Positions 32,477 to 47,746 of a DNA stretch of 64,000 nucleotides are shown here, in pieces. The notes under the pieces were generated by a model. The model did not search any database and was not told the DNA's origin. It saw only the letters and a list, made by a program, of their open reading frames with translations. The DNA is from a virus (lineage: Duplodnaviria > Caudoviricetes): IMG/VR virus record IMGVR_UViG_3300025011_000016, one strand, 5' to 3'. A program made the position numbers and the translations under genes. Every line of letters begins with the position of its first letter. The stretch's first letter is position 1.

Positions 32477-32832
32477 AAGACAAAACTTATACTATTGAAC
32501 AAATAAAATCATATGCTGCGTATTGGTTAAAACCAGCAACTTGTTCTGATGTTAAAGATAGTGTTATTGAAAACGAACGATTGCAATCTTTTATACACTA
32601 CATTGACATGGAAGACGATAGTTCAAATATCGATAAGGTCTTAGAGAAACAATTAAAATCTGGTGATGTTGTATATGATCCAAATAATGTTATCGGAGTT
32701 GTTCGCACTATATATGGTAACGGTAGAGTCTCTGTGCAACAATTATCAGGGGATACAATTATTCAATGTTCATATGATACCCCAAAAGTATTATCTAAGT
32801 TAAATCCTTTATTCACAGGAAAATTAAGATGA
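32473..32832 (+). CDS. Hypothetical protein, paralog of the previous ORF
   Basis: Shared YT(L/I)xQIxxxAxxxLxP..EN.RL..F..GD(I/V)V pattern. ATGA overlap. Confidence 0.6.
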   Translation: MKDKTYTIEQIKSYAAYWLKPATCSDVKDSVIENERLQSFIHYIDMEDDSSNIDKVLEKQLKSGDVVYDPNNVIGVVRTIYGNGRVSVQQLSGDTIIQCSYDTPKVLSKLNPLFTGKLR

Positions 32833-33425
32833 TTGAAAAAGAGATTAAGGTTCTAAATATTGATAAAACTACTATTGAGACATTATTGATATCTAAAGGT
32901 TGTGCGTTATGTAAGGATGAGATTCAAGAGAATATTACCTATAGGGGAGATAGTTTAGGTTCCATACGATTGAGGAAAACTACATCTTCATTAACTGGTA
33001 ATGTATCATATGAATTAACTCGGAAAACTGATATTGAGAAACTTGATAATGAAGAATGTGTAATGCAAAATGAAAAGAGTATTGATATATCTGAACAAGA
33101 ATTTTGTACTGCTCAAAAACTATTTAACTGTATAGGTTTAATACAGGGAATTAGAGGAAAGAAACATCGTAGAAGTTTCCATTTAAATGGATTCTTATAT
33201 GAAATTGATAAATGGGTAGATGAAATTCTACCCATTACCTATTTAGAAGTAGAAACTCAAAATCCGAATTTAAGAATTATTAATGGATTAAAACAAATTT
33301 GGTCTGATGATGAAATTGCTACATTAGTTATAAGCACCGATGGTATTGGTACATTAGTTAAAATTCATAAGAATGTTGGAATTGAAGCTTATATTGAATC
33401 CCTTATGGTATTTCGTAGATCATAA
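32829..33425 (+). CDS. CYTH-domain protein (class IV adenylate cyclase/triphosphatase fold)
   Basis: N-terminal EKEIK (ExExK), IRLR, K.RRSF, EIDKW and YLEVE. Confidence 0.75.
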   Translation: MIEKEIKVLNIDKTTIETLLISKGCALCKDEIQENITYRGDSLGSIRLRKTTSSLTGNVSYELTRKTDIEKLDNEECVMQNEKSIDISEQEFCTAQKLFNCIGLIQGIRGKKHRRSFHLNGFLYEIDKWVDEILPITYLEVETQNPNLRIINGLKQIWSDDEIATLVISTDGIGTLVKIHKNVGIEAYIESLMVFRRS

Positions 33426-33527: not shown

Positions 33528-36500
33528 ATGGCAGTAACACCACCAAAGAAAGTGGTCCCAAATTTATCATTGAAAGAAACATTGCAAGAGAAGGAACAAT
33601 TATATCATGGTAAAGATGATATATTCGGAATGACATTACTTACCAATCCAGGGTATATTAGTGCATCTCGAAACATTATGTTTACTTCTCATTTAAGACA
33701 ATTCGTAAATTTGAATAAACCGGATTTCCCAAAAGTATTAACGAATTATGAAAATCTTGTTGGTAAACATTCAACTGGATATTTCAAACCTAAGAATGAT
33801 TTAATCGTTGTGGATAAGATACCCAAGTTTAATGATATAAATGATGCAAATCATTTATATCTATTATTCTTATATGATAAGAAGACTAATACTTACTCCG
33901 TTATACAGAAAAAGATCGTTGAAGATCTAACAGAGAAGTTTGGTTTTAAATATAAGAATGATCTTATGGATTCTAAATCTATCGGAGATAAAATACAAGG
34001 AGGTAAAACATTATATTCATCCACATCATATGATGAAGATGATAATTATAACTATGGTAGAAATATTAAGTTTATGTATCTACTTGAAAACAATACTATT
34101 GAAGATGCCATAAAGTGCTCTGAATCGTTATCTAAAGAAATGACTTCGACTGAGGTTGAAACTGTAAAGATATCATTCAATGATAATGAAATCATGTGTA
34201 ATCTTTATGGCAACAATGATGAATACAAAGGTTTTCCAGATATTAATGAAAGGGTTAAAGATAAGATCATATGTGCCAAAAGAAGAATTCATAACAATCA
34301 ATTATTATTCGATCTAAAGAAATCAAATCTACGTAAGATTAATTTTATGTCAGATAACTTATTCTTTATTGATGGAAAGATTGTTGATATTACTATCTAT
34401 TCAAATAAACCTATTGGAGAAATTGAAGATAATATCTTTAATCATCAAATGTTAAAATACCTTAAAATGCAAAAAGAATTTTATACTAAAGTTTTAGATA
34501 GGTGTAAAAAGATAATTGCATCTGGAGCTAAATATTCAAATGAAATAAATTTCTATTATAAGAAAGCTAAGAATATATTAGACGATAATTACATGTACAA
34601 GGAAGAAGATAACAGTGTATTTAGTAATATGGTTATTGAATTCCTTGTTGAACGAGAAGTTCCTTTATCAGTAGGACAGAAGATTACTGGTCGTTACGGT
34701 AATATAATTGCTGTATTTTCTTTAATTGTCGGGGATATCCTTATAGCTTAAACTACTATTAGTAACAAGTTTAAGATTGGACAATTCGCAGCCAAGATTG
34801 TTAATAAACAATAAGGTTCAACGACTAGAGTGAAAACTCGTAGATTCGAAAGAATTGAAATGGGAAAACGATAGATTTTAATCTATTGAAGATATAGTCT
34901 AATATCCTAATGGAAGTTAGGGAAGTTCATAAGAGAACTGCATTATATAATAATGTGAATACTTGAATAAAGGTATTATAAGTCAGATCATACCAGATGA
35001 AGAAATGCCATTTCTTGAAACTGGTGAACGTGTCGATTGTATATTCAACTCCCTAAAATTTTGGGGCTTTATGTAGTGATATATAATGAAAACTACTTTA
35101 ATTGCGGGAAAATTCTTATGGCTTTATAATATAAAGATTGGACAATCCGCAGCCAAGATTGTTAGTAAACAATAAGGTTCAACGACTAGAGTGAGAACTC
35201 GTAGATATTAATATCGAAATTGGTAGAATCTTCTATATAGAAGATTATGAGATAGTCTGGTATCCTATATAACTATAGGGAAGTTCATAAGGGAACTGCA
35301 TTAATTAATAATTACTGTGAACACAACGAGGTGTGATAAATCGCTTAACTGAGAAGGTCCGGGCGATGTAAAACCTTTCTAATTGCGGGGACATTTGTTA
35401 ATTTCAATTTACCAAGTTAATATATTAATGGCTTAGTCCAATCAACTAAGGTATGGTAATAAGAATTGAAATTGAGTAATCCGCAGCCAAGATTGTTAAT
35501 AAACAATAAGGTTCAACGACTAGAGTGAAAACTCGTAGGTTTATTTATAAGCCGAAACGGAAGGCTGGTAATACTTAATATTATTAGAAGATATAGTCTA
35601 AAACATTTGTGAACTCATTTCAGTTATATGAGCAGTCAATAAATTTTATATGTAATCGCATAAGAGAAAGAATTGCGATAACAGAAGATATCTCTATAAA
35701 AGAACAAATGGTATTTAGTATTGTGGGTCATTTTAATCCTGAAGAACAAAGAAGACTTAGGATATATTATGATAAGTTATCAGATAATGGTAAGGATCAT
35801 TTCTTCGATGATATAGTCAAGCAAGGTATCTATATACACATTCCTCCACTTTGGGAAGACGTATGTTTATTCGATAAACTAAGAGCAATATATGCTGAAT
35901 TCACATGGATAAAACCATACTCAGTTTATGTGAATAAATTTGGAAGAAAGATCAAAATGATGAAGGATTTAATTGTCGGAGAAATGTATGTTCTTAAATT
36001 AAATCAAACTTCAAAGAAAGGTTTTTCAGCCAGATCCACTGGTTCGTTATCGAAGAGAGGAATTCCTATTTATTTATATGGGACTATATAGAGTAATCTA
36101 TATTGTGAAAACATTTTAATTGACGGGAAACTCCTTAGAACTTCTTAATTGAAGATTGGACAATCCGCAGCCAAGTCTCTTATAATAAGAGAAAGGTTCA
36201 ACGACTAATTTAGAGCTCAAGTGAGTGGATGAGAATCCTTTTAAATCAAAATAAATGTCATCCGTAAAAATAATAAATAACGGATGGTGATATAGTCTTG
36301 TATCCTATATAGTTATAGGGAAGTTCATAAGAGAACTGCATAGATTAACGACCTATGTGAAAGTATCGGAGAAATCAAATAAAGCAAAAACCCATCAAGA
36401 ATTATATCCACATACGCCTCAATTTGTAGGGGCTGTTGTATAGTAATATATAATGAATCTTTCTTAATTGACGGGAACCTTCTTAGAGCCTTATTTACTA

Positions 36501-37552
36501 AACTATAAGTATTATAGTGGCCAGAATAATTAACTGGGTATAGTAATAAAAATAAGGATTGGATAATCCGCAGCCAAGATTCTTATATAAGAATAAGGTT
36601 CAACGACTATCGAAAGCTTTTAATTAAGTTAGTAGAGTAAGCTCACAAGTCAATAATGGTGAGTTAAAACAGAAAGCTCCTAGAAATAGGATAAAGATAT
36701 AGTCTGCTATCTCAAGGAAACTTGAGGAGTTCATAATGGAACTGCATAAATTGACGATTTATGTGAACAAAAAAGGATACGAATTGGAGATTACTTATAT
36801 AGTTTCCCTGCATAGTAATATGCAGTTTAACAACTCTTTTAATTGACGGGAAACTCCTTAGTGCTTTATAATATAAAGATTGGACAATCCGCAGCCAAGC
36901 CTCTTTATGAGAGAAAGGTTCAACGACTAGAGCATTGCTCATAGATTTACAAGTTAATGGTAAGTCGAAATGGAGAGCTCTATTAATAAACTTTATTAAT
37001 AGATGAAGATATAGTCTGCACCTTAAAGAAATTTAAGGACAATCTTTTGAATTGTAATACATGTTACGAATGTATTTAACATATTGGCAGGAAAATATTA
37101 ACAGTATGATAGGTGTCGATCCAGACATCATAGCTAAACTACATTTATTCTATAGGTCTTCAGTTGTTGGAAGAAGAAACTTAGGTGAAACTTTGGCAAC
37201 TAGACTTAAGTTATTAAATGATTTTAAGTATTCTGCGGAATTCAAAAATAGAAATGTTGAAATTTTACAGGCATATTTAAAAGCTATGGGCGTAAAGATT
37301 GTATTTGAAAATGAGAATATGTATATTGAAATCTATACTGATCAGTTAGAAGAATATTCATCTGAGGGTAGGATATATATATGTACTAAACGTGAGTTTG
37401 AAGCCGTTCAGAGAGAAGCAGAAGTTCGCAGAGAGTTCCGTGAGGATAAGTGCTTAGTGGGAACTCATGCTGAAGTTGAAGCTATTATTCAAGCTCGTAT
37501 CAGCGATCTAAACAAACGAGATACTCATTATGTAATTGACATAAATTTATAA
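33528..37552 (+). CDS. RNA polymerase beta-subunit C-terminal half (probably non-virion RNAP), 7 exons / 6 introns (~755 aa)
   Basis: Exons 33528-34700, 34966-35054, 35329-35345, 35610-36067, 36369-36419, 36777-36791 and 37088-37552 (2268 nt). Restores KITGRYG|NKG, FNSL|GVINR|LNSFQ, GIP|EK and TP|IRIGD|QEN. Confidence 0.88.
34701..34965 (+). ncRNA. Group I intron betaC-I1
   Basis: P1 TACGGT/GCTGTA and core motifs. Confidence 0.88.
35055..35328 (+). ncRNA. Group I intron betaC-I2
   Basis: P1 CCCT/GGGG and core motifs. Confidence 0.88.
35346..35609 (+). ncRNA. Group I intron betaC-I3 (no recognisable P9 domain)
   Basis: P1 ATCGCT/GGCGAT and core motifs. Only 11 nt lie between GATATAGTC and the terminal G. 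Confidence 0.8.
36068..36368 (+). ncRNA. Group I intron betaC-I4
   Basis: P1 TCCT/GGGA and core motifs. Confidence 0.88.
36420..36776 (+). ncRNA. Group I intron betaC-I5
   Basis: P1 GCCT/GGGC and core motifs with a variant P7-P8 region. Confidence 0.85.
36792..37087 (+). ncRNA. Group I intron betaC-I6
   Basis: P1 GGAGAT/GTTTCC and core motifs. Confidence 0.85.
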
Positions 37553-37693
37553 GGTGTGTTTATCACACCTTATTCTTTTTTTATTTCCGTATATATAGGA
37601 TTTATAAGTATATATTATAATATTAATAAACCTAAGAGTGTAAGTTAAGTTATACATATAAAGAGATATTTAGAAGGAGAGGAGAAATTTACT

Positions 37694-38518
37694 ATGATCC
37701 TTAAGAAAAATCTATTACCTATTATTAATACAACTGGAATTGCAAAGGTTATTGTGGTTGCTACTCAAAAAGGTGGATCTGCTAAGACAACATCTACATG
37801 TAATCTAGCTGTTGCTATGGCGGAACGAACAGGTAAACGAGTTGCCATAATTGATTTCGATCCACAAGGTCATGTTAGTACAACTTTTGGATATGATAAG
37901 ACAGCATATAAATCTACAATATATGATGTCCTTATTGGAGATCAACCATTAAGTTCAATCCGAGTAAAAACCAAATATGGAGTAGACATATATCCATCTA
38001 ATAGGGAACTTGCCAATATTGAACATGAAATCATCTTAAACAGAATTATGTTTCCAAGAGACAAGTTTGTGCTTAGAAATGTTATTGATGATATAAAACA
38101 TAGATATGATTATATCTTCATTGATACACCACCGAGTTTAAGTTTGATAACATTAAATGCTCTAGTGGCGGCAGATGAAATTCTTATTCCTGTCCAAATG
38201 GAACCATTGGGTGCTGACGGTCTAGTTGAATTGTTAGAAACTATAAGTTCAATAGTTAGACAATACAATCCCGATATTGTTATCAAAGGGGTTATTGGTA
38301 CTATGCTCGATAGACGAGCTAAGTCTATGGTTACTCAACTTGTCCAGGATATAAATATGTTCTGTGACAAAAATAAGATTCATATCTGTGAGACTTTCGT
38401 TAGGAGAGCGCCACGAATGTCTTATATTGGCGGTATACCTGTTATCTTAGGTGATCGTAAATGTGAAGCCGTTATGGATTATAAAAAAATATTAGAGGAG
38501 CTGTTCTGTTATGAGTAA
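37694..38518 (+). CDS. parA: ParA/Soj-family partition ATPase
   Basis: Deviant Walker A QKGGSAKTT, IDFDPQG and IDTPPSL. Confidence 0.92.
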   Translation: MILKKNLLPIINTTGIAKVIVVATQKGGSAKTTSTCNLAVAMAERTGKRVAIIDFDPQGHVSTTFGYDKTAYKSTIYDVLIGDQPLSSIRVKTKYGVDIYPSNRELANIEHEIILNRIMFPRDKFVLRNVIDDIKHRYDYIFIDTPPSLSLITLNALVAADEILIPVQMEPLGADGLVELLETISSIVRQYNPDIVIKGVIGTMLDRRAKSMVTQLVQDINMFCDKNKIHICETFVRRAPRMSYIGGIPVILGDRKCEAVMDYKKILEELFCYE

Positions 38519-43393: not shown

Positions 43394-43525
43394 AACTGGC
43401 AACGACATAGACAATGAGTTATTAACTAACTCATTGTCTATGTCAATTTAATGATACAATTTTTTTATTAATTAAGAGATGTTTTGTAATAGTTTAAACA
43501 TTATAGAGAGTTGGGGGAGTAATTC

Positions 43526-46500
43526 TTGAAGGACTTCATAAAGGATTATAACAACACCAATGAAGAAAATATCAATTTTGATCTAATGACACGATCACAT
43601 GATGCTGATTTAACAGAGTATGTTGTTAATACCTGTAAATCATTAGAAGTTCTTAAATATATTAAATTCATTGGTTATGAATATATAACTGATGAAACGA
43701 AAATAGATATTAATTACTATATGAGTACGAGGAAGAAAAGTAAGAAGAAAAATGAAACAAAGTATATGTACCTGCAAGATAGTCGATATGGTGAAATGCA
43801 TTTAAAGTTTCATTTAAAATGTAAAGATCGATCATTAACTTTTATCAAGAAGATATTATTACCAGTGGCTGATGATAATGATTATTATTTAGTTAAAGGT
43901 AAAAGACATTCATTATTATATCAACTAGTTGATAGTTCAACTTATACAACTAGACAGAATTTAACATTAAAATCATTAAGACCTATTACGATGAAACGAA
44001 CTGAAAGAATATATTCAGATACAGATGGTACTAAACATTCAGCTCCTTCATATGCAATTTATATCTTCAAGAAAGAAGTAGATATATTATTATTCTATTT
44101 TGCAAAGATAGGTGTGTCAAGAACTTTAGAATATTTTTCAGTAAATCATATAATGAAGTTTAAATCAGAAATTGAAGATACTATCAATAATATATATTTC
44201 TCAATTAATAGTAAATTACATGTAGAGATCAATAGACATTTCTTTGATAAATATCCATATGTTAAGAGTATAGTATTTATGATATTGAATATTTGCACTA
44301 ATAGATTAACTGTTGAAGATCTAGAAAATAAATCTTTCTGGATTGAAAAGATAGGCTCTATGAATGCGACTAATGCATATAACTATCTAGAAAAAGGTAC
44401 TAATACTTTAGTATTCTTTGATAGGTTATTAGATGAAACAACTAAGAATATTTTAAAAATTCATGATGAGAATAATAAAAATATATACTCTGTAATTCGT
44501 TGGATTAAATTATAGTCCCATTATAGAGTGATCTATATTGAAAACTTCTTTAATTGTCGGGAAACTCCTTAGTGCTTTATAAAGATAAAGATTGGACAAT
44601 CCGCAGCCAAGATTCTTATAATAGGAATAAGGTTCAACGACTAATTTAGAGCTCAAGTGAGTGAGTTTAATATAACTCTTAAATCGAAATAAGAAGCATC
44701 TTATATAAGATGATGATATAGTCTGTGCTTTATTGAAAGATAAAGAAAGATAACATCTTTACATTATCTAACGAATAATGTTAACACTCAGGTTTCAAAA
44801 CTTTAATGAATTACGTAAGAAAGATAATCTTGATCTTGCCAATAAACGTTTACGATGTAATGAACTCATCGCATCATTATTAACTAAAGCTTTTAGTACT
44901 AGAGTTGATAGAATTATTGGTTTTGGTAATAAAGTTACGTTAGATAACATTAAGGAAATATTCAAATTTCCAGGTGATGTAATAATGCAGCAATTGCATA
45001 AGTCAGGATTATTTAGATATGATATTTTATTGTCCATTATAGTAGTGATATTATAATGAATTTTCTTTAATTGGCGGGGACATTCTTAGGGCTTAAACTA
45101 CTAAAATATATCAGTGATGATATACTAACTAAGAGTAACTAACTTAGTATGAGTAATAATGTTTAAGATTGGACAATCCGCAGCTAAGCATCTTTATATA
45201 AACCCCCATAATTATTAATACGTTATACAATATAAAGGAGAGGTGTGACTGTAATGAAAGGACGATTGGGTGAAAATAAATGTCCCTCTTGTTACGAATA
45301 ATTATTCAATTAATTCTGAGGGATTTATTAGGAATGATAAATTCAATAGAATTTTGACCCGATGGAAAAATAATAGAGGTTATGAAGCTGTGCAATTATC
45401 ATGTATTGATGGTATAACAAGAAGTTTTACAATTCATAGATTGATGGCTCATCATTTTATACCAGGGTTCGACATTTCAGATAGATCCATTGTTGTTCAT
45501 CATAAGGACAGTGTAAATAAAACTAACTCATTAGATCTTCTAACCGTTTGTACTCAAAAAGAAAATATTAAGTATTCTATCGAAGAAGGTAATAAACCAA
45601 ATGGTGAAAAACATCCGATGGGTAAATTTCCAGATGAGCTGGCTAATAAAATAGTTGCCTTATTACAAAAAGAAAAAAGTACCGATGAAATATTTAATAT
45701 ATTAGATTTAGAAGTTAAGAAGAATATGCGTATATTTATAAATGATCTTAGAGCTAAACGAACCCGATTGTATTTAACTGAAGGTTTGGATTTAAAGAAG
45801 CATGTGCAGGAAAAACATGATATAAACTTGGTGAAGAGGGTGATTCGTTATATGAAGATAGGTATGACGGTAGATAATATAATCAATATGATTGGAAAAG
45901 GAAATGCTGGTAGGCATGAAAGGGAGAGATACTCCTCGTTAATACAAAGGATACATGACGGGAAAGCGTGGGGAAGATTATATAAAGATGATAGTTCAAC
46001 GACTAATGATGACTACATGGTTATTAAAATTAAAATGTAGTTATAGATTTACAAGCTAATGGTAAATCGAAATGGGGAACACCTCATATTAAGTTGATAT
46101 GAGATGAAGATATAGTCTGGTATCCTAATATTAAATTAGGGAAGTTCATAAGAGAACTGGGTTTCGTTGCGGAAAACCTGAACCTGGGGATAAAATTAAC
46201 GATCTCGACTTCTTTAGTAAGTTCAAATATACCCTAAATTTTGGGGCGTTATAGAGTGATCTATATAGATAAAATTCTTTAATTGTCGGGGAACTCCTTA
46301 GAACTTCTTAATTGAAGATTGGACAATCCGCAGCCAAGATTGTTGATAAACAATAAGGTTCAACGACTAGAGTATAACTCGTAGATATATAAGTTAATGA
46401 TATATCGAAATAAGTTTAATCTTCTTATAGAAGATTGTGATATAGTCTTGTATCCTATATAACATTAGGGAAGTTCATTTGAGAACTGTATAGAGTTACG

Positions 46501-47746
46501 ATCTATATGAAAGTATACGTAAAGGACCAAATTCCTTGGGTTTTAATAAATAGGCCCATGATCTTTTAATTGCGGGAAACTCCTTAGTACTTCTATATGA
46601 AGATTGGACAATCCGCAGCCAAAATTGTTGATAAACAATAAGGTTCAACGACTAGAGTATAACTCGTAGATATATAAGTTAATGATATATCGAAATATAG
46701 AACTATCGAAAGATAAAGAGATAGTCTGGTATCCTAATTAACATTAGGGAAGTTCACAGGAGAACTGCATTATTTTACGAATAATGTGAACTCATCGAAT
46801 AAAAATGATAATAATATCTCAGTTAAATATCGCGGCATACACCCGAGTTATCTGGCCCGCGTAGATATTAACGTTTGCGGTGAACGTAGAAATATAATTG
46901 CCGCCTTTTCTTTAATTGACGGGAACTCCCTTATAGCTTAAACTACTAATAGTAACAAGTTTAAGATTGGACAATCCGCAGCCAAGATTGTTATAAAACA
47001 ATAAGGTTCAACGACTAGAGTGATAACTCGTAGATTCGAAAGAATTGAAATGGGAAAACGATAGAGTTATTCTATTGAAGATATAGTCTAATATCCTAAT
47101 ATAAGTTAGGGAAGTTCATAAGAGAACTGCATAGATTGATAAACTGTGTGAATAAATGAATTCAGACCCTAGAAATAAATTTGGGGCAATATCGAGTGAT
47201 CGTTATTGTTAAACTACCTTGACTGCGGGAAACTTCTTAGAGCTTTAAATTGATAAAGATTGAACAATCCGCACCCGATATTCTATATAATAGAATAAAG
47301 TTCAACGACTAGAGCATATTTGCTCGTAGATATAAAGTTATATCGAAATTAGTAGAATCTCTTAGGAGATTATGAGATAGTCTGGTATCCTATATAACTA
47401 TAGGGAAGTTCATAAGAGAACTGTACTATTTAACGAATAGTATGAACACACGGGAACTAGTGGTATTATAACACCATTCTGTAAAACTAGTGGATTATTC
47501 TTCGATGGTGCATTTGAACCAGAAAGTTTTAAATATGATTTTGATAAGGAGATAACTGACTTTAGAAAATCAACTAGTAATAACATAATTGTTGATACTC
47601 ACTATGATAATATATCTGAGTATTTTGAAGGTAGAGAACGATTTAAAGAAATGAATAGTCGAATCAAAATATCAGAGATTGAACGAACTGATAATAGTAA
47701 GTATTATATTAAAATTAAGCTTGCTAGTAATACTGATGATATATAA
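43526..47746 (+). CDS. RNA polymerase beta-subunit N-terminal half (probably non-virion RNAP), 7 exons / 6 introns (~556 aa)
   Basis: Exons 43526-44505, 44792-45023, 46189-46235, 46520-46541, 46798-46881, 47159-47170 and 47453-47746 (1671 nt). Restores KFKYT|LKGPNSLG|NKN..RGIHPSYLARVDINVCG|NSDP|GTSG, matching the RpoB fork-loop region. Confidence 0.85.
44506..44791 (+). ncRNA. Group I intron betaN-I1
   Basis: P1 GGAT/GTCC and core motifs. Confidence 0.87.
45024..46188 (+). mobile_element. Group I intron betaN-I2 with HNH ORF
   Basis: P1 GAT/GTC. Q precedes the ORF, R lies inside the ORF 3' end, and S is at 46107. Confidence 0.85.
45270..46040 (+). CDS. Intron-encoded HNH homing endonuclease
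   Basis: IHRLMAHHF..VHHKDSVNKTN..TQKEN. GTG start. Confidence 0.8.
   Translation: MKINVPLVTNNYSINSEGFIRNDKFNRILTRWKNNRGYEAVQLSCIDGITRSFTIHRLMAHHFIPGFDISDRSIVVHHKDSVNKTNSLDLLTVCTQKENIKYSIEEGNKPNGEKHPMGKFPDELANKIVALLQKEKSTDEIFNILDLEVKKNMRIFINDLRAKRTRLYLTEGLDLKKHVQEKHDINLVKRVIRYMKIGMTVDNIINMIGKGNAGRHERERYSSLIQRIHDGKAWGRLYKDDSSTTNDDYMVIKIKM
46236..46519 (+). ncRNA. Group I intron betaN-I3
   Basis: P1 CCCT/GGGG and core motifs. Confidence 0.87.
46542..46797 (+). ncRNA. Group I intron betaN-I4
   Basis: P1 TGGGT/GCCCA and core motifs. Confidence 0.87.
46882..47158 (+). ncRNA. Group I intron betaN-I5
   Basis: P1 GCGGT/GCCGC and core motifs. Confidence 0.87.
47171..47452 (+). ncRNA. Group I intron betaN-I6
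   Basis: P1 CCCT/GGGG and slightly divergent core (GACTGCGGGAAA, AATCCGCACC). Confidence 0.85.

Follow-up and report, generated by a model that had tools for sequence, protein, structure and literature searches.

How does a phage obtain a complete subunit of its RNA polymerase (RNAP) from a gene in which the open reading frame (ORF) is broken six times, leaving in places only 15 or 17 nt of coding sequence between one interruption and the next? This question is raised by positions 33528–37552 of a 64,000-nt stretch of viral DNA (Duplodnaviria; Caudoviricetes; IMG/VR record IMGVR_UViG_3300025011_000016; hereafter the window, G+C ~30%), which derives from an AT-rich, uncultured jumbo phage of groundwater. 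The interrupted gene is orthologous to g089 of Bacillus phage AR9, encoding the C-terminal half of the non-virion RNA polymerase (nvRNAP) beta subunit, and our sequence analysis makes it very probable that small phage-type (IA-like) group I introns devoid of ORFs have entered this gene on six occasions. The frame of exon 1 (33528–34700) was 42.5% identical to AR9 g089 (ORF and tblastn comparison) and matched chain C of the solved AR9 nvRNAP (PDB 7S00, E 3e-73), while its match to phiKZ PHIKZ071 (7OGP_C) was weak (E 1e-9). Exon 2 matched Pfam PF00562 (RNA_pol_Rpb2_6, E 1.6e-7), exon 4 lay in a tblastn high-scoring segment pair (HSP) with AR9 gp089 residues 411–554, and the spliced product gave a single HSP with AR9 gp089 (37% identity over 643 residues, E 4e-122). 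The identification as RNAP beta-C, made in a preliminary description of this DNA that also proposed alignment to the AR9 and phiKZ beta subunits as a check, is borne out by these matches. The N-terminal half is encoded separately in the same genome, where window positions 43523–44505 match the AR9 RNAP beta subunit gene (83359–84321, E 1e-37).

For comparison, 80 IMG/VR loci were recovered with an alignment query (a single-protein query matched none), and intron boundaries were placed so that every intron was preceded by T and closed by G, the joined frame stayed open and the product was colinear with AR9 gp089. On the + strand this gave seven exons of 1173, 89, 17, 458, 51, 15 and 465 nt, which join into an open frame of 2,268 nt (755 aa) and are separated by introns of 265, 274, 264, 301, 357 and 296 nt, each with an in-frame stop 7–16 codons from its start. 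Exon 1 (33528–34700) encodes residues 1–391 and ends in GRYG, and intron 1 (34701–34965, phase 0, without an ORF) separates it from exon 2 (34966–35054), which runs from NKG to FNS and the first two bases (CT) of a Leu codon and is colinear with the relatives. Intron 2 (35055–35328, phase 2) is followed by micro-exon 3 (35329–35345), comprising the last base of that Leu codon, the codons of GVINR and the opening base of the Leu codon that follows, and then by intron 3 (35346–35609, phase 1). Exon 4 (35610–36067; (L)NSFQ through SARSTG to RGIP, again colinear with the relatives) and exon 5 (36369–36419, matched in loci L004 and L008 by segments of equal length and near-identical sequence) flank intron 4 (36068–36368, phase 0). 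Intron 5 (36420–36776, phase 0, with a long P5 extension), micro-exon 6 (36777–36791, encoding IRIGD), intron 6 (36792–37087, phase 0) and exon 7 (37088–37552, stop codon included; QENINS to the C-terminus, colinear to residue 755 with L002–L004) complete the gene.

With the intron position marked by a slash, the six junctions (J1–J6) are GRYG/NKG, the Leu codon between NSL and GVINR (CT/A), the Leu codon between GVINR and N (T/TG), RGIP/EKS, HTP/IRIGD and IRIGD/QEN, and the predicted exon-exon joints read GGT/AAT, CCCT/AGG, CGCT/TGA, CCT/GAG, CCT/ATA and GAT/CAG. The range given in the preliminary description, 34701–37087, matches to the nucleotide the interval from the 5' end of intron 1 to the 3' end of intron 6, and its insertion points at GRYG/NKG and TP/IRIGD/QEN were confirmed. 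Its reading NSL/GVINR/LN was right to within one codon, the exact cuts falling inside both Leu codons, and the fourth junction, RGIP/EKS, which was absent from its list, was placed by the relatives. From sequence alone the 3' end of intron 4 is ambiguous; it was set after 36368 by uninterrupted relatives reading RG[IV]PEKS. Alternative ends after 36350 or 36359, which are in frame and would add six or three residues, were rejected, as the uninterrupted relatives lack extra residues at this point and in the sister introns the terminal G lies 6–9 nt after UGUGAA.

Colinearity with intact genes is the first line of evidence for this arrangement. The closest loci (L002, L003, L004 and L008), 62–68% identical over the whole product, each carry the gene as one uninterrupted ORF, aligning to residues 1–755 or 13–755 of the spliced product; these alignments pass through all six junctions without a gap. 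Intron-less alleles span J1–J2 (P0002 and P0003), J1–J3 (P0009), J4–J5 (P0006) and all six junctions (L002, L004 and L008). GVINR is present in all uninterrupted relatives and the 17-nt exon is required to restore it, just as the 15-nt exon restores the IRIGD/IRIGx motif of the relatives; the two micro-exons announced in the preliminary description (35329–35345 and 36777–36791) are therefore upheld by colinear orthologues as well as by the bridging unitigs described next.

Repeated sequence might be expected to mislead an assembler, and one explanation of the locus would be that repeated intron cores were mis-joined into false tandem introns. Unitigs do break in the repeated cores, and only there, with depth rising 10–20 fold. 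Against this, in unitigs from three groundwater samples of one study (four DNA runs examined), every exon together with flanking intron sequence on both sides lay within a single zero-mismatch unitig, at equal depth, in two or three samples, so that all exon-intron borders were covered, and the exon order is that of the orthologues. A 250-nt unitig (35262–35511) spans the 17-nt exon in two samples (X1 and X2=X3) and a 276-nt unitig (36610–36885) spans the 15-nt exon in three. No exon-exon DNA joint occurred among the joints listed for the four DNA runs; those listed link paralogous intron cores. The six introns are not an assembly artefact, a possibility to which we attach almost no weight. 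On the covariance-model scores given below, the single HSP with AR9 gp089 and the gap-free junctions, the arrangement is also far beyond chance.

That the insertions are group I introns is indicated by their structure. Six matches to the Rfam group I intron model RF00028, each to the full model (1–253), were found in 34665–37038 at 56.6–94.6 bits (gathering score 50), with covariance model (CM) E-values against the whole window of 1e-11 to 1e-23, in agreement with the number of introns originally proposed for this gene. Individual scores were 56.8 (intron 1), 76 (intron 2), 56.6 (intron 3), 78.7 (intron 4), 74 (intron 5) and 94.6 bits (intron 6). A U.G pair at the 5' splice site is a hallmark of P1, and in minimum free energy (MFE) folds of 24–34 nt around each 5' border a P1 with the splice-site U opposite G was obtained at all six borders: U34700 in intron 1, CCCU/AA over UUGGGG in intron 2, AUCGCU over GGCGAU in intron 3, UCCU/AU over AUGGGA in intron 4, GCCU/C over GGGGC in intron 5 and GGAGAU/UA over UAGUUUCC in intron 6. 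The U positions were fixed independently, by protein colinearity. All six introns end in G. In an alignment of 16 introns from the window, compensatory double changes were seen at 20 of the 39 consensus pairs (MAFFT/RNAalifold recovered the structure in part only), and such changes imply that the ribozyme folds are under selection.

Other classes of element fitted less well. Mobile introns each with a homing endonuclease of their own were rejected, the introns being only 264–357 nt long with no endonuclease ORF inside; the only two stop-to-stop frames of at least 60 aa (85 and 106 aa) are on the minus strand, span exons and have no Pfam match. A twintron arrangement was likewise rejected, as uninterrupted orthologues conserve the GVINR and IRIGD motifs that the 17- and 15-nt spacers specify. 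Two internal terminator-like hits turned out to be P1 hairpins, those of introns 2 and 5.

Five of the introns have a P9 domain. Intron 3 lacks P9, P9.1 and P9.2 (it has no P9–P9.2 columns in the intron alignment), its 3' splice site falling 11 nt past the P7 strand GAUAUAGUCU, and carries a long P5 extension instead. Three relatives with 62–66% protein identity (L005, L006 and L007) have introns at the GVINR/L site that end 7–11 nt past the same P7 strand GAUAUAGUCU; on sequence grounds intron 3 and these counterparts are taken to be a conserved P9-less lineage. Searching the literature for group I introns that naturally lack P9 yielded nothing usable.

Several points weigh against the reading of the locus as six working group I introns. 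Intron 3 is without a P9 domain, introns 1 and 3 barely exceed the Rfam threshold (56.8 and 56.6 bits against 50), the P10 pairings, judged by eye, are weak (0–3 pairs), and no RNA run carrying the sequence was found. The efficiency with which a message holding six ribozymes would splice also appears to be a weak point, and the mode of spread considered below depends on just 4–5 shared exon bases. The first two of these could also be read as signs of a decaying gene, in which at least one intron no longer splices and the locus is a pseudogene in a defective phage. We consider this very improbable: the frame is intact over seven exons with all motifs conserved, the P9-less form has been kept at the same site in three relatives, the helices co-vary, and the ~300x unitig depth in the source sample is that of an abundant phage population.

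If the six introns are active, expression of the gene would run as follows. A primary transcript of ~4 kb would carry six independent ribozymes; in each case the last 4–6 exon bases would pair with the intron's internal guide to form P1, with the U.G wobble at the cleavage site, free guanosine would open the intron and release would follow its terminal G, giving the 2,268-nt reading frame for the 755-aa subunit. P1 of intron 3 would take the last six bases of the 17-nt exon, intron 2 would use that exon's first bases for a short P10, and the 15-nt exon would supply GGAGAU to P1 of intron 6. Adjoining introns would thus use separate exon bases and could therefore splice independently and in any order; both the actual splicing and its order we infer. 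The stops within the introns would halt ribosomes on unspliced RNA, keeping them out of the ribozyme cores.

The phase of the small exons invites another interpretation, in which the introns are a regulatory device: six guanosine-dependent steps, or optional skipping of the 15- or 51-nt exon, would tune the timing or amount of the late polymerase. Exons 5 and 6 are phase 0 at both borders, so that the loss of either would keep the frame; skipping of the 15-nt exon would delete IRIGD in frame, and the arithmetic of this suggestion in the preliminary description was correct. In AR9 the product, as part of the nvRNAP, is required for the late transcription programme (PMC7598289). No feature indicating skipping was found for the 15-nt or the 51-nt exon, however, the IRIGD motif that would be lost is nearly invariant in the relatives, and exon skipping has no ready route in group I chemistry. 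Furthermore, approximately 60 of the 80 relatives have no intron in the gene and occupancy varies freely, and a regulatory role is accordingly regarded as highly unlikely.

Within the protein the introns sit in highly conserved stretches. In an alignment of the spliced product with 41 distinct uninterrupted orthologues (42 sequences), the eight residues around each junction had a mean top-residue frequency of 0.64–0.86, compared with a gene-wide mean of 0.54, placing the junctions at conservation percentiles 78–99.9 and all six in the top quarter for conservation; GRYG/NKG (J1) is the protein's most conserved spot (99.9th percentile). The assertion that the insertions fall in conserved core motifs thus held. 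We take the junction motifs to correspond to the GNKG, PSRMN and RFGEME segments of bacterial RNAP, in which the GNKG lysine presumably has its role at the initiating-nucleotide site. The introns are best read as selfish elements accumulating in the most conserved, least mutable codons.

The relatives show the same preference with lower loads. At least 20 of the 80 loci have one or more insertions, with a maximum of three (L015) against six here; at 14 loci the insertions were confirmed to hold group I cores, leaving six of the 20 interrupted loci without confirmation, and most large insertions in the relatives escaped Rfam at its gathering score. Recurrent insertion sites were KITG/RYG, GRYG/NKG, GVINR/L and around IRIG. 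Many gene-caller fragments of this protein in the protein database end exactly in these motifs (e.g. KITG, GRYG), in a sample biased towards fragments by its length filter. A further recurrent break, after EMYVLK (approximately residue 556 of the spliced product), was seen in P0055, P0070, P0072, P0088, P0095 and P0107; this site is empty here.

Such recurrence also bears on the idea that the ORF-less introns have been retained as immunity, each breaking up the target of a homing endonuclease from co-infecting competitors, so that the intron-filled RNAP motifs would be shielded from cleavage, an explanation that is compatible with the introns being selfish elements and adds a benefit to it. 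Relatives have been hit repeatedly in the same motifs at slightly shifted positions (KITG/, KITGR/, GRYG/, GVINR/ and IRIG/), larger insertions, of 830–1,675 nt, occupy these sites in relatives and may include endonuclease genes (large insertions are present in L005, L014, L015, L032 and L072), and a jumbo-phage RNAP gene is the reported target of an intron endonuclease through which co-infecting phages interfere with one another (PMC11620839). On the other hand, no endonuclease was identified here, and plain homing into conserved DNA predicts hot spots equally, for which reasons we consider retained immunity rather unlikely.

Group I introns are numerous in the window as a whole. There were 22 Rfam group I hits in the 64 kb, and a family hidden Markov model (HMM) built from them detected ~29 cores or core pieces, all on the + strand, with clusters at 2.2–4.3 kb, 14–16.3 kb, 44.5–47.4 kb and 59.2–60.2 kb. 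Core identity among the six introns of the beta gene is 55–72%, and they are therefore not recent duplicates of one another. An intron at 46873–47158, in the gene for the beta N-terminal half, is ~90% identical to intron 1 from first to last base; the two differ in two guide bases (GCUGU vs GCCGC), in step with the exon (ACGGU vs GCGGU). The intron at 46873–47158 is followed by a 12-nt exon (47159–47170) and then another intron.

Intron 2 and the related introns at 46236 and 47171 (79–81% identical, in two genes) all stand behind CCCU with the guide GGGG kept (border sites compared: 35051–35066, 46232–46250 and 47167–47185), and intron 5 and an intron at ~13970 both stand behind GCCU. Target choice thus seems to track the short guide, and the presence of paralogues behind the same 4–5 exon bases suggests guide-directed spread within the genome, as in reverse splicing. 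A 73-nt core block is 90–96% identical in introns 1–3 (34773–34845, 35134–35206 and 35468–35540) compared with 65–72% for the whole introns, a mosaic pattern that suggests exchange or recombination between intron copies. A more elaborate scenario, in which a swarm of introns spreads by guide-directed reverse splicing with the guide retuned after insertion, the saturated RNAP motifs have become immune to the homing endonucleases of competitors and the P9-less lineage is stable at one site, is in our judgement quite unlikely.

The 3' tail of intron 4 (36320–36361; 42 nt with two small hairpins ahead of the 3' splice site) recurs with 100% identity as the tail of a group I intron in the RNAP beta-prime gene of a jumbo phage, Vibrio phage vB_pir03 (L082, positions 1201–1242). 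Outside this tail the two introns are far less alike, and the tail module is common to many introns of the window. Megablast of the locus against cultured phages returned a 42-nt match only.

Comparison with known systems places the gene at the extreme of a known kind. AR9 g089 is the orthologous protein, with GRYGNKG, LGVxNRLN, SARST and RIGxxE motifs that align without gaps, but is a single uninterrupted ORF where the present gene is cut six times. Introns have been described in other jumbo-phage multisubunit RNAP genes: in AR9/PBS1 g190 lies inside an intron of the late gene g189 (PMC5312081), and among phiKZ-like phages a PhiPA3 intron endonuclease is described (PMC11620839). These are of the self-splicing type to which the introns described here are assigned by inference, but they are one or few and bear endonucleases, whereas here six ORF-less introns occupy 2.4 kb with exons of 15 and 17 nt between them. 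Jug phages carry 18.5 group I introns per 360–402 kb genome, about half of them validated by metatranscriptome reads (PMC12880540), and they and crAss-like phages resemble the present phage in having many small group I introns that fragment essential genes. The density found here (22 hits by Rfam and ~29 by HMM, in 64 kb) is much higher, and the lineage is AR9-like. Micro-exons are known from organelles, with 3-bp exons in fungal mitochondria and a 1-nt exon in placozoan cox1 (cited in PMC12308204). These share with the present exons a length of a few bases and a place in highly conserved genes with a self-splicing intron, here a predicted one, on either side, but belong to organelles rather than phages, and the exons here are longer (15 and 17 nt). 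The phenomenon, selfish-intron crowding, is thus already known; the gene is extreme by the number and spacing of its introns and calls for no new mechanism.

Its value lies in showing how far selfish introns can load an essential phage gene, with six ribozymes needed for one polymerase subunit in a window that carries approximately one intron per 2–3 kb, well above published intron-rich phages. 'Enhanced intron mobility' has been proposed to explain the split RNAP genes of jumbo phages (PMC7598289), and this gene would be a present-day example of it. There is also a consequence for annotation, since gene callers break such genes into fragments and thereby produce database entries ending at KITG or GRYG. 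Ribozyme biochemistry has ready material in this family of introns, whose members differ in target and in one case lack P9.

The gene is preceded at 32799–33425 by a gene for a CYTH-domain protein (Pfam E 2.8e-5). At its 3' end a terminator-like hairpin of the intrinsic type (37549–37573, + strand), with a 10-pair stem and a T-rich tail, overlaps the stop codon, and the downstream neighbour at 37685–38518 encodes a ParA/MinD-type ATPase (AAA_31, E 1e-50).

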